Source: Klebsiella phage phiKp_30. Taken from it: DNA of 33,740 nt. Under the pieces are notes generated by a model, which saw only the letters and a list, made by a program, of their open reading frames with translations, was not told the origin of the DNA and did no database searches. The first letter of the stretch is position 1. Each line of letters begins with the position of its first letter. Location: sequence record LC768498.2, one strand, 5' to 3'. Of this stretch, positions 30,053-32,959 are shown piece by piece. Position numbers and translations under genes: made by a program.

Positions 30053-32959
30053 TTAATACTCCGTCACGTTTTCCTGTCGCCACGCCTCGTCATATTCCGA
30101 TTTCGGCATATTGGCGATGTAGCTATAAGGCGATCCTGATTCAAGTTGCAGGAACTGGTGCGATTGCTCGTCAAGGAACAACGGGACACCACCTTCCCAA
30201 CCTTCGCCGTTACGTTGTTTTTCAAGCATCAAAACAGATGCCGGAGATGCCAGTAACTGTTCGTCCTTCTCTGACATCTTTTCACCACTCTGAACTCTCT
30301 GTAACGCTCTCTCGCGAGCCTTGTTACGCCAGATGATGAAAAGGTTGTCTGTCAGGTCTGTTATCGCTCCAGAGCCTTTTACGTCCATTTTCCCGGTTGG
30401 TTTTTCTTCGCTGTCTCCTTTTCGCGAGTGAGTAACGAGAATGACGTGGGAGTTTGTTTTGTTTTTGAAGTCGCAAATCGAGTCAACAAACGCCTTCTGC
30501 CCGTTATAGTCATCGTCGCCTATGCCACATTTCATCAGGCTGTCGATGATGAATAACTGGATCCCGTATCGGCGGCGAGCGTAGTCGAATATTTCGATCA
30601 GCCTGTCGGCTTTCGCCGTTCCGGTCAGGCCAAACACCCAAAGTCTTTCGTCATAAAATTTAAATGCAGAGTCAATTTCCAGCACTGGCGGCATCTTGCA
30701 GCACGTCGCCTGACGGGTAAGGCGCTTAAGGAGAATACCAGGCTTCAGCTCAAGTGACGCGATGCACGTCTTCACACCCTGACGCATTGCCTCAAGTGCC
30801 ATATGCCCGACAACCTCGGTGTTATGCGTAGCCACATATCCCCTGGTTACATACAGGCGGCGAGGGTGATCGACCATAATACACAAGCATTCTGCATTGC
30901 CTATTTTTTCAACATTCCTGACGAATACCCCACAGCCCTCGAATCGATGCGCAGTTAATCTGCCATTGAGTCGTGGTGAACGGATGGCCTCCCTGATTTC
31001 TCTTGTCAGTCTGATTCTTGCCTCGTATGAATCCATCCCATGCCGCTTATCGCCCTTGTATGTGTATGTCACGCCAGTTTTAACTCGCGTCCGGCATGAC
31101 CCGCCGAGTGAGTTAACCAGTTGAACAACCCCATTGAGCAGCTCTTCACTTGCTGAGGAAAAAACAAGCGTTCCATCCTTCTCGACATACCCATCCGTTT
31201 CAAGCAGACCACACAGCATGCCTATACGCGTTGATTTATTTGCAGAAAAAAACACACGAGGGATGAATTTGTTTTTTGCTGTGCACCCCATTAGTCCATA
31301 ACCTCGCAGGGTCTCCATGAGTGGATTTACCTGACCACGCGCCGTTGATATCAGCCAGTCCTTACCATCTCCAGAGAAGTTGTAATCAGGCAGTTCAGCC
31401 TTCATACGCTCGATCATGTATGGCTCGACGTTTGAAAACTTCACGCTCCCATTGCTAAGACTACCATCCCCGAGAAGGGAGCCGATAACCCATGCTAATG
31501 GCTCTGAGTGGTCGCCAAAGTCACCAGTTATTTCAGGAATCCTAACGCCATTTTTGTGCCTCTTCGTTTCACTCAACCGTTTCAGCTCGAAGGTGTCTAT
31601 CACGCGGCGCTTCTCGCCTTTCGTGAATCCACGACTAGTGACCTCCCATAGGTGATCGCCTGCGCAATCAACATAACGACCATCTTCAAATGTGACTCGG
31701 TAAACATCTCTAACACCCTGCGGGAATATCCCGGTGACAGTTGACGGATTGCCGTCAACTGACGCCACCTGATCGCCAATTTTTACATCCCCGTGAGTAG
31801 TCCATTCACCATTAGCGAGCAGAATTGGTTCATCAAGTGGACAGGCTTTTCCGTGACCGTTCACACCATTGACCAGCGTCAACTCGGCCTCACGGAACTG
31901 GAATTTATCTGCCAGAGATTCCCACGGTGGATTAAACAGATACTGCTGCTTGCCGTAGAAAGCGTTGATAGTGTCCTGGTAAAACTCGCGCGCGCTGTAG
32001 AGTTCTTCAGGATCGAAGTAGGATGCCGTGCCGATGTACTGCCAGATTTCATCCTCGGTAACACCGTTCATCAGGCATTCGTTGATGTCTTTGTACGGCA
32101 GAGTAACAAGACGGCAACGATGTTCACCGAGTCGGCTTGCGATTTCCCTTGCGGCTTCACGACCAACATCATCAACGTCCATCGAGATGAATATCTCCTC
32201 AAACCTGTCGAGGTTGTGATACTCAAACTCAATCCACTGTTGCTTAGCACCTTTCCCGCCACCAAACGGCACGGATAACGCCGAGATGCCGTATTGCGCA
32301 TAGCTCATACAATCAATTTCGCCTTCGCAAAGTACAACCGCCCTCACGCCAGCGTCCAGAGCCTGCCATCCGAACAGACAAGGTTCGCAATCACCTTCTG
32401 CCATAATGACTTTCTTCCCGTCCGGTCGCTCAGTGCTGATTCGCTTGACCTGCAACAACTCACCATCGCGTTTGTACGGAAGCACCAGTGCATCAAGTTC
32501 TCGTTCTCCATTCCACACCTTGCCGCTGACAACCTCGTAGCGCTTTACGACTTCTGGCGATATGCCACGCGATTGCAGGTACTCAAGATGGGATTCTGTT
32601 CTGGTAACGTAGCGGGCGATTTTCTTGCGGTCAGGTCTGGAGAATTTCTTCTCACGTTTGGCATCGAAATGGTGATCGTCATCCTTGATTCCGAGAAAGG
32701 CTTTCGCTTCCTGCATAGCCTGATGCAGGTTAATTCCACGACATGCCATCCACAAATCAAGCATGTCACCGCCGTCTCCCTCAGCGAAATCAGCCCATTT
32801 TTTCTTGCCGCTAAGGTTGACCTTAAGGCTGTTTCCCTTGTCACCGTTGACGTTACCGGCAACCCACTCATGCCCCTCTTTCTTGCCGTTTGGCAACAGG
32901 TGCGGAGCCACCCTGTCAACCTGCGCCCAAAGCAGGTCGCTAAGTTCTGATGGACTCAT
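30053..32959 (-). CDS. Bifunctional DNA primase-helicase (DnaG-like TOPRIM primase plus SF4 DnaB-like helicase) interrupted by a 341-aa intein.
   Basis: A DnaG-like N-terminus with a degenerate zinc-ribbon region, TOPRIM motifs (VVLCEGEIDCMSYAQ; ISMDVDDVG), a P-loop NGVNGHGKA split by the intein, and helicase motifs (LFIIDSLMK; VILVTHSRKG). It is the first gene after the O-like initiator. Confidence 0.8.
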   Translation of the reverse strand: MSPSELSDLLWAQVDRVAPHLLPNGKKEGHEWVAGNVNGDKGNSLKVNLSGKKKWADFAEGDGGDMLDLWMACRGINLHQAMQEAKAFLGIKDDDHHFDAKREKKFSRPDRKKIARYVTRTESHLEYLQSRGISPEVVKRYEVVSGKVWNGERELDALVLPYKRDGELLQVKRISTERPDGKKVIMAEGDCEPCLFGWQALDAGVRAVVLCEGEIDCMSYAQYGISALSVPFGGGKGAKQQWIEFEYHNLDRFEEIFISMDVDDVGREAAREIASRLGEHRCRLVTLPYKDINECLMNGVTEDEIWQYIGTASYFDPEELYSAREFYQDTINAFYGKQQYLFNPPWESLADKFQFREAELTLVNGVNGHGKACPLDEPILLANGEWTTHGDVKIGDQVASVDGNPSTVTGIFPQGVRDVYRVTFEDGRYVDCAGDHLWEVTSRGFTKGEKRRVIDTFELKRLSETKRHKNGVRIPEITGDFGDHSEPLAWVIGSLLGDGSLSNGSVKFSNVEPYMIERMKAELPDYNFSGDGKDWLISTARGQVNPLMETLRGYGLMGCTAKNKFIPRVFFSANKSTRIGMLCGLLETDGYVEKDGTLVFSSASEELLNGVVQLVNSLGGSCRTRVKTGVTYTYKGDKRHGMDSYEARIRLTREIREAIRSPRLNGRLTAHRFEGCGVFVRNVEKIGNAECLCIMVDHPRRLYVTRGYVATHNTEVVGHMALEAMRQGVKTCIASLELKPGILLKRLTRQATCCKMPPVLEIDSAFKFYDERLWVFGLTGTAKADRLIEIFDYARRRYGIQLFIIDSLMKCGIGDDDYNGQKAFVDSICDFKNKTNSHVILVTHSRKGDSEEKPTGKMDVKGSGAITDLTDNLFIIWRNKARERALQRVQSGEKMSEKDEQLLASPASVLMLEKQRNGEGWEGGVPLFLDEQSHQFLQLESGSPYSYIANMPKSEYDEAWRQENVTEY
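30821..31843 (-). other. Intein (Hint domain plus LAGLIDADG homing endonuclease) inserted in the helicase P-loop, aa 373-713 of the primase-helicase.
   Basis: It begins with Cys (CPLDEPILLANGEWTTHGDVKIGDQVASVDG) right after GHGKA and ends ..YVATHN followed by Thr (+1). There are two LAGLIDADG-like blocks (VIGSLLGDGSL; IGMLCGLLETDGYV). Removing it restores ..GHGKA-TEVVGHMALEAM... Confidence 0.7.

Follow-up and report, generated by a model that had tools for sequence, protein, structure and literature searches.

A probable class 3 intein with a LAGLIDADG endonuclease domain between the Walker A lysine and threonine of the primase-helicase of Klebsiella phage phiKp_30

The window analyzed here, 33,740 bp in length, comprises the complete GenBank entry for Klebsiella phage phiKp_30. 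On its minus strand a single open reading frame (30053..32959) codes for the 968-residue precursor of a primase-helicase, which is identical to the deposited protein BEI45467.1 ('hypothetical protein phiKp30_370'). Residues Ala372..Asn713 of this precursor (30821..31846, minus strand) constitute a 342-residue insertion between the lysine and the threonine of its Walker A motif, which we regard with high confidence as a class 3 intein with a double-motif LAGLIDADG endonuclease and as an allele of the intein of phages Min27 and phi24B and of Shigella prophages. A previous interpretation of this DNA made without database searches (henceforth the sequence-only reading) had called both the 968-residue frame, which we recover unchanged, and a full-length LAGLIDADG intein inside the P-loop of a phage primase-helicase, which is now supported by sequence profile matches and by intein-free alleles of the same gene.

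The limits of the insertion were defined by comparison with alleles that lack it. Protein and DNA alignments with phages mEp043 and epsilon34 place the empty site at GVNGHGK|TEVVGH, encoded by GGAAAA|ACGGAGGTT; the intein-less DNA of mEp043 reads …AACGGTCACGGAAAA|ACGGAGGTTGTCGGGCAT…, and the intein-free alleles of three IMG/VR contigs (L006, L008 and L011) have the same empty site. Across this point the window reads GHGK-ACPLDEP...VATHN-TEVVGH. The two exteins of mEp043 are 99.0% and 98.3% identical to those of the window, and those of epsilon34 about 87%. Because the intein-free alleles of mEp043, Sf101 and L011, which are 98-99% identical to the window, read GVNGHGK|TEVVG, the insert must be 342 residues (1026 nt) long and begin with Ala372. 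It is thus an in-frame insert at a conserved site that is missing from close homologs, and since the bases flanking each junction differ its position is unambiguous at the DNA level. Judged from these alignments the N-terminal splice junction is K371|A372, one residue upstream of A372|C373. The sequence-only reading had the insertion start with the cysteine: translation confirms that 30821..31843 on the minus strand encodes 341 residues from this cysteine (CPLDEP...) to ...GYVATHN, followed by threonine, and the alignment of the exteins to intein-free homologs that it had proposed as a check upholds an insertion within Walker A, but moves the start one residue upstream to the alanine of 'GHGKA' (31844..31846). 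The intein-minus alleles that it had suggested seeking in related phages are those of mEp043, epsilon34 and the above three contigs.

The consequences of the two boundaries for the mature protein are distinct. Excision from the alanine restores GVNGHGKT, with NGVNGHGK-TEVVGHMALEAMR as the junction peptide of the spliced product, whereas excision from the cysteine leaves ...GHGKATEVV..., breaking the GxxGxGKT pattern. When the protein is spliced in silico at the alanine, its Walker A segment GVNGHGKTEVV aligns with GPTGSGKTTFI of Twinkle (1.8e-10) and with T7 gp4 (6e-5), in line with the earlier proposal that splicing would be required to restore the P-loop. A cysteine lying right beside the junction, as here, is a trap in the calling of intein boundaries.

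Class 3 inteins have been defined by the absence of serine, threonine or cysteine at position 1, by a Trp(B12)-Cys(F4)-Thr(G5) triplet (the WCT triplet) and usually by serine or threonine at +1; in these the F4 cysteine attacks the N-terminal junction first, giving rise to a class-specific branched intermediate (PMC2807308, PMC3196547, PMC5222942). Cysteine at +1 is rare among them. Numbered from Ala1, the phiKp_30 intein presents Ala1, His65, Trp67, Cys322, Thr340, His341, Asn342 and Thr+1, i.e. a non-nucleophilic first residue, the entire WCT triplet and a threonine at +1, and in a HMMER alignment these signature residues fall on the catalytic His65, Trp67, Cys124 and Thr143 of the mycobacterial MchDnaB1 intein. 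It departs from class 1 in that its first residue is alanine, with cysteine only second, and in having cysteine rather than the usual aspartate at position 4 of block F. Given that residue 1 is alanine and that the class 3 signature is complete, we place the element in class 3 and not in class 1. The class has been reported to be monophyletic, and the phiKp_30 intein may group with it: in sequence searches its nearest solved matches are themselves class 3 inteins, and its 153 nearest relatives all bear the signature.

The same features hold across the wider family. As a word-indexed homolog search with the intein gave too few sequences (5 proteins, which were used for comparing junctions), we exhaustively searched 1.84 billion cluster representatives and obtained 16,823 relatives at E<=0.001; the per-position counts that follow are over the 153 full-length intein copies within the best 150 of these. 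The residue preceding the intein is lysine in 131/153, itself preceded by glycine in 133, and 131 share the GK|..|T P-loop site, the K|T of the P-loop having been noted as the 'classic' insertion site of phage and bacterial inteins. Position 1 is alanine in 108/153 and cysteine or serine in only 7; position 2 is glutamine in 112 and leucine in 34, and cysteine in none. The B10 histidine, the F4 cysteine and the G7 asparagine are present in 153/153, the B12 tryptophan in 152/153 and the G5 threonine in 150/153, while the +1 residue is threonine in 138/153 and serine in 14/153. Homologs in DnaB (GARPKMGK|AMALEAK...) and in PhoH (GPAGTGK|AQPLTAK...VTHN|TMLA) have this same GK|A...THN|T junction. 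One further relative, a 357-residue metagenome protein (P0003) 36% identical to the intein, has arginine in place of the F4 cysteine, and its C-terminal end is THC where THN would be usual; this free-standing or fragmentary protein is possibly an intein copy that has decayed or been domesticated.

All the blocks expected of an intein, namely A, B with the B10 histidine, F, G with its His-Asn end and the +1 threonine, could be aligned with solved inteins and with the 153 relatives. Block A (ACPLDEPILLANG; 31808..31846, minus strand, as are all the following) opens with Ala1 (31844..31846) and Cys2 (31841..31843), the latter being where the sequence-only reading began the intein. The core of block B, GDHLWEV (31640..31660), contains His65 (B10) and Trp67 (B12) and aligns with the HQW of MchDnaB1. 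Block F (ECLCIMVDHPRRLYV; 30848..30892) supplies Cys320 (F2) and Cys322 (F4), which aligns with Cys124 of MchDnaB1 and is predicted to be both the initiating nucleophile and the branch point of a class 3 mechanism. Block G, YVATHN, together with Thr+1 (30818..30838) carries Thr340 (G5), His341 and Asn342; the +1 codon, ACC at 30818..30820, is that of the Walker A threonine. The endonuclease domain splits the HINT splicing domain between blocks B and F. Its two motifs, both of which had been sensed as LAGLIDADG-like blocks from the sequence and are borne out here, are block C (LAWVIGSLLGDGSL; 31457..31498), with LLGDG and the acidic Asp127, and block E (RIGMLCGLLETDGYV; 31184..31228), with LLETDG and the acidic Asp218; each thus ends in an acidic residue, and the corresponding columns are aspartate in 127/153 and 151/153 of the relatives respectively. 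The Pfam LAGLIDADG_3 profile scores 33.8 bits in the precursor and 37.3 bits over intein residues 208-262 (cut-off 22.5).

Searches against PDB sequences returned as best matches the mycobacterial DnaB mini-inteins MchDnaB1 (6rix; 7.5e-9) and Msm DnaBi1 (6bs8; 1.9e-6), along with the phage gp41-1 intein, and matched the endonuclease part to PI-SceI (2.6e-5). We also built an AlphaFold (AF2) model of the intein with 7 flanking residues on each side from a 5-sequence alignment (predicted local distance difference test, pLDDT, 79; predicted template modeling score, pTM, 0.65). This moderate-confidence model matches PI-SceI with a template modeling (TM) score of 0.73 (E 4.5e-17), as well as TliVMA, Prp8, MchDnaB1, Msm DnaBi1 and the hedgehog autoprocessing domains, which places it in the HINT fold, and its endonuclease domain matches the folds of PI-SceI, I-DmoI and I-Tsp061I. 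Based on these PDB sequence matches and model matches we consider the element a real intein with a LAGLIDADG domain.

The host protein has the architecture of a superfamily 4 (SF4) primase-helicase, with an N-terminal Toprim domain and a C-terminal RecA-type helicase domain with the GxxGxGKT motif. The N-extein (residues 1-371; 31847..32959, minus strand) comprises the primase part with the Toprim domain (residues 209-296; 32072..32335, minus strand; Pfam Toprim_2) and the beginning of the helicase domain, and terminates in GVNGHGK, the first seven residues of Walker A. The C-extein (residues 714-968; 30053..30820, minus strand) contains the remainder of a T7 gp4/Twinkle-like SF4 helicase domain, its first residue being the Walker A threonine. 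A Pfam scan of the 968-residue precursor finds Toprim_2, LAGLIDADG_3, Hom_end_hint and a partial AAA_25 corresponding to the tail of the ATPase domain, while the NCBIfam matches, which are to dnaG and to intein-containing proteins, are all partial. Toprim_2 scores 45.8 bits in the precursor and 47.1 bits in the scan of the spliced product (cut-off 22.1). Upon in-silico splicing the AAA_25 match grows from a 21.7-bit fragment to 28.0 bits, contiguous over residues 357-507 (cut-off 27).

Splicing, the class 3 chemistry and endonuclease activity are predicted from these residues and alignments, and the following course of events can be envisaged. The precursor would be unable to bind or hydrolyze ATP normally, because its P-loop is split by the intein. 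Residue 1 is alanine and splicing would therefore not be begun by it; instead Cys322, activated by His65, Trp67 and Thr340, would attack the Lys371-Ala1 peptide bond to form a branched intermediate with a thioester at block F. The N-extein would then be transferred to the side chain of Thr+1, cyclization of Asn342 would free the intein, and an O-N acyl shift would yield a 626-residue enzyme with the native GVNGHGKT P-loop. Through its LAGLIDADG domain the freed intein is expected to cleave intein-less alleles at GGAAAA|ACGGAGG and to spread into them by homing when two phages co-infect a cell or a phage meets a prophage. For anyone who would use or mutate this intein the class 3 label matters, since the nucleophile would be Cys322 and not residue 1.

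Several observations weigh against this interpretation. The DnaB_C profile reaches 23.8 bits on the spliced product, below its cut-off of 27. Hom_end_hint matches with 23.5-25.2 bits, under the Pfam cut-off of 32.1, so that of the Hint and LAGLIDADG profile matches anticipated by the sequence-only reading only the LAGLIDADG_3 match exceeds its threshold. The confidence of the AF2 model, built on five sequences, is moderate. At B7 the intein has alanine and not the aspartate of the DxxH motif of Msm DnaBi1, in a column that varies across the family, and Cys2 is without precedent in the 153 relatives yet kept in two diverged alleles, so that some role for it is possible. We found no experiment on this intein in the literature searched, and the authors of the phi24B study state that the function of its P intein was not determined (PMC3430580).

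The last point would equally suit an element that is decaying or does not splice, the gene being a pseudogene and replication being left to the host DnaB/DnaG or to another function. Truncated copies in Shigella prophages demonstrate that the element can decay, which also counts against our interpretation, and the putative class 3 intein Arth_1007 was found to be inactive; however, Arth_1007 lacks the F4 cysteine and the B10 histidine, both of which the phiKp_30 intein has. Moreover, the 968-residue frame is open with all its catalytic and signature residues intact, synonymous changes predominate between alleles, and the intein is retained in many complete, inducible Shiga toxin (Stx) phages and in a 1494-member cluster. 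We accordingly judge decay to be quite unlikely.

The cysteine beside the junction raises the alternative of a class 1 intein of 341 residues, in which Cys373 would perform the N-S acyl shift and Ala372 would stay in the mature protein. The cysteine is indeed followed by a block A-like sequence, has been retained in each of the two diverged alleles although its codon differs synonymously between them, and a few inteins with the WCT triplet (7/153 here) do start with cysteine or serine. Nevertheless, five of the five intein-free alleles sampled lack the alanine (GHGK|TEVV), and the GHGKATEVV produced by this route would shift the Walker A threonine out of its alignment with the GKT of Twinkle and T7 gp4. 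Among the 153 relatives the column of this cysteine is glutamine or leucine and never a nucleophile, the residue that comes directly after the Walker A lysine being the preceding one, mostly alanine; further, presence of the WCT triplet covaries with absence of a nucleophile at the N terminus. Taken together, these make a class 1 intein highly improbable. No more credible is a class 2-like route, in which Thr+1 would attack the Lys371-Ala1 bond directly with no branched intermediate at block F. An alanine at residue 1 is also seen in KlbA inteins, and the sequence cannot separate the two routes, for which, according to the literature, mutation of the F4 cysteine is needed; but class 2 inteins are known only in KlbA, have Cys+1 and are devoid of the WCT triplet, the F4 cysteine has proved absolutely required in all WCT inteins tested, and the nearest solved relatives of the phiKp_30 intein are proven class 3 inteins.

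As for Cys2, which adjoins the scissile bond and is kept in both diverged enterobacterial alleles, one may speculate that it forms a reversible disulfide with Cys322 or Cys320, rendering maturation redox-dependent, or that it provides a second, class 1-like splice route; we consider either quite improbable. Nothing in our data supports a redox role, which is conceivable by analogy with Msm DnaBi1, a mycobacterial class 3 intein with a Cys48-Cys118 redox trap. Were Cys2 to act as such a switch, maturation of the primase-helicase, and hence replication of Stx and P22-like phages, would be tied to the redox state of the cell.

Returning to the class 3 intein, its distribution is patchy. The primase-helicase gene is matched in 38 phage records and in 296 of 5426 complete E. 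coli genomes, and the match extends over the full 2907 nt, i.e. with the intein, in 8 of the 38 and 79 of the 296. The remaining matches cover about 64-65% of the gene in two pieces; the middle third is therefore missing from them. Intein-plus genes are found in ~60-kb Stx phages, in the P22-like phiKp_30 and in prophages of E. coli, Salmonella and Shigella, some of which are truncated. The intein is thus polymorphic among near-identical alleles, and contig L011 combines the same 5' leader as the window with an allele that has no intein. Along its 2907 nt the window gene is 98.2% identical to the P gene of Min27, phi24B, Stx2a_F451, Stx2a_F403 and phiXuzhou21. The Min27 record divides this gene into two coding sequences, 'P' and 'DNA primase' (4074-4083 of that record, corresponding to the region of 30450-30465 in the window), owing to a pair of one-base indels separated by 12 nt, at about nt 2497-2510 of the gene; as the window and the other alleles are in frame here, these are probably a sequencing error.

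Within the intein the window and Min27 differ at 26 of 1026 nt (97.5% DNA identity). Of these differences 16 are synonymous and 8 codons are altered in the protein; the codons of Ala1 (GCC/GCA) and Cys2 (TGT/TGC) are among those changed synonymously, which points to purifying selection. The first 42 nt alone (14 codons; window 31805-31847) account for 14 of the 26, distinguishing two variants of the intein, ACPLDEPILLANGE in the window and L012, and ACPLNEPILFADG in Min27, L005, L007 and L010. Such clustering suggests that a short tract at the N-terminal junction was exchanged by recombination or conversion. The exteins show opposite affinities: the N-extein of the window has 11 mismatches to the intein-free mEp043 against 21 to the intein-plus Min27, whereas its C-extein has 13 to mEp043 against 3 to Min27. 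The gene is therefore a mosaic around the intein, such as would arise from co-conversion or ordinary recombination. In addition, the Thr+1 codon is ACC in 6/6 intein-plus and ACG in 5/5 intein-minus alleles sampled, a split whose bearing on cleavage or homing is only suggestive. Both the patchy distribution and the mosaic gene fit a homing element, and we propose that homing into intein-less alleles, following the predicted cleavage, accounts for the patchiness.

The phiKp_30 intein belongs to a known lineage. It is not new, since it has been published for phi24B/Min27 and for Shigella prophages, and its assignment to class 3 follows from criteria already in print. The phi24B genome paper describes an intein in P from residue 372 with an intact HintN domain (PMC3430580), and Tori et al. 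counted the ShP-Sfv-2a primase inteins, which are copies in Shigella prophages, among inteins without an N-terminal nucleophile. In a literature search we found nothing on phiKp_30 or on an intein in a Stx-prophage primase. The InBase names concerned are 'EP-Min27 Primase' and 'ShP-Sfv Primase'. The Stx phages Min27, phi24B (vB_EcoP_24B) and Stx2a_F451 have the same gene with the same insertion site, intein length, Ala-Cys start and THN|T end, in genomes of ~60 kb as opposed to the 33.7-kb P22-like backbone of phiKp_30, and the SfV-like prophages of Shigella flexneri bear an intein in the same replication protein P (primase-helicase).

Among characterized inteins the mycobacterial DnaB mini-inteins (Msm DnaBi1, 6bs8; MchDnaB1, 6rix/6riy) occupy the same K|..|T/S P-loop site in a SF4 helicase and share Ala1, His65, Trp67, the F4 cysteine and THN with the phiKp_30 intein residue for residue, the HINT parts that align being roughly 30% identical. 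They differ in having no endonuclease and in the aspartate at B7 (DxxH; alanine here), and an equivalent of their redox partner Cys48 was not seen here. The DnaB intein of mycobacteriophage Bethlehem (MP-Be DnaB), the class 3 prototype, whose mechanism has been established experimentally, likewise resides in a phage helicase, is 341 residues long, contains an endonuclease domain and combines the WCT triplet and Thr+1 with a first residue that is not a nucleophile; this, however, is Pro1, and the extein site is VSQDQ|..|TKNTF (a likeness drawn from published descriptions). PI-SceI (VMA1), TliVMA and PI-PfuI have the same architecture of HINT plus double LAGLIDADG, PI-SceI being the best fold match, but these are class 1 inteins (Cys1) of eukaryotic or archaeal hosts, with 15% identity, another host protein and an extra DNA-recognition region. 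P-loop inteins are already known as a very large family from the SF4 helicases of phages and bacteria, and the present case adds little by way of discovery. Its use lies rather in annotation, where the 'hypothetical' protein of phiKp_30 should read 'intein-containing primase/helicase', and in the intein-plus/minus polymorphism, a convenient natural system for studying homing in lambdoid phages and a possible gating of Stx-phage replication by splicing.

The sequence-only reading had further noted 18-bp direct repeats bracketing the gene. The two exact copies exist and are non-random (0 copies expected in shuffles), but their link to the intein does not hold. One copy (TCAGAATGCGATTCAGGA on the coding strand; 32971-32988) precedes the primase ATG by 11 nt, and the other (29878-29895) precedes by 24 nt the ATG of ninB, as identified by PHROG 72. 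Each is found alone before its own gene in other phages: among IMG/VR contigs L004, L006 and L008 have the ninB copy alone, L005, L007, L010 and L011 the primase copy alone and L012 both, and in L011 the primase-side repeat precedes an intein-free gene. On these grounds we reject an origin of the repeats as target-site duplications, or as scars left by recombination of the gene or the intein. By its distribution the 18-mer is a shared leader or module-boundary sequence and not a footprint of the intein; it may serve as a translation-initiation or regulatory leader or as a module-exchange junction. It ends in AGGA and holds a short imperfect palindrome, CAGAAT-GCG-ATTCAG.

Between a small upstream open reading frame and the primase start about 110-150 nt (window 32960-33110) are unmatched by BLAST among 50,697 phage records, and a search with the 161 nt that precede the primase likewise returned zero matches in this phage collection; in mEp043, Min27 and epsilon34, unlike in the window, the upstream frame directly adjoins the primase ATG. 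The initial 12 nt of the primase coding sequence differ as well (MSPSE vs MTPSE). On the other side, a 27-codon frame encoding a hydrophobic peptide (MTIYITELVTGMLVIAGLLFVCKQNRF; ~29969-30052, minus strand) begins right after the primase stop (TAAATG). Its counterpart in Sf101 is annotated NinA, and in other phages conservation of this frame stops after the first ~60 nt.

The length of 33.7 kb, which the sequence-only reading had presented as a compact P22-like genome, agrees with that of the deposited record, but its compactness needs caution, and the completeness of the genome is uncertain, because the record ends inside an array of probable origin iterons and because no integrase was present among the open reading frames scanned in the window. 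The array consists of 5.9 tandem copies of a 21-bp unit (GGGCAGCTCCTGCCCCACCCC; 97% matches) at 33614-33740, up to the last base of the record, and sits inside an O-like replication initiator gene. When the ends of the record are joined, open reading frames span the junction but shift frame in the array, which suggests that the record is circularly permuted and was broken, or its repeats mis-counted, within the iterons. Although it is named a Klebsiella phage, the best DNA matches of phiKp_30 are P22-like phages of E. coli and Shigella (Huey and Sf101), at ~95.6% identity over 53-55% of the first 25 kb, and its left 6 kb (1-6001) encodes a repressor-like helix-turn-helix protein, an N-like antiterminator, Erf, SSB, an exonuclease, Abc2 and an antirepressor.

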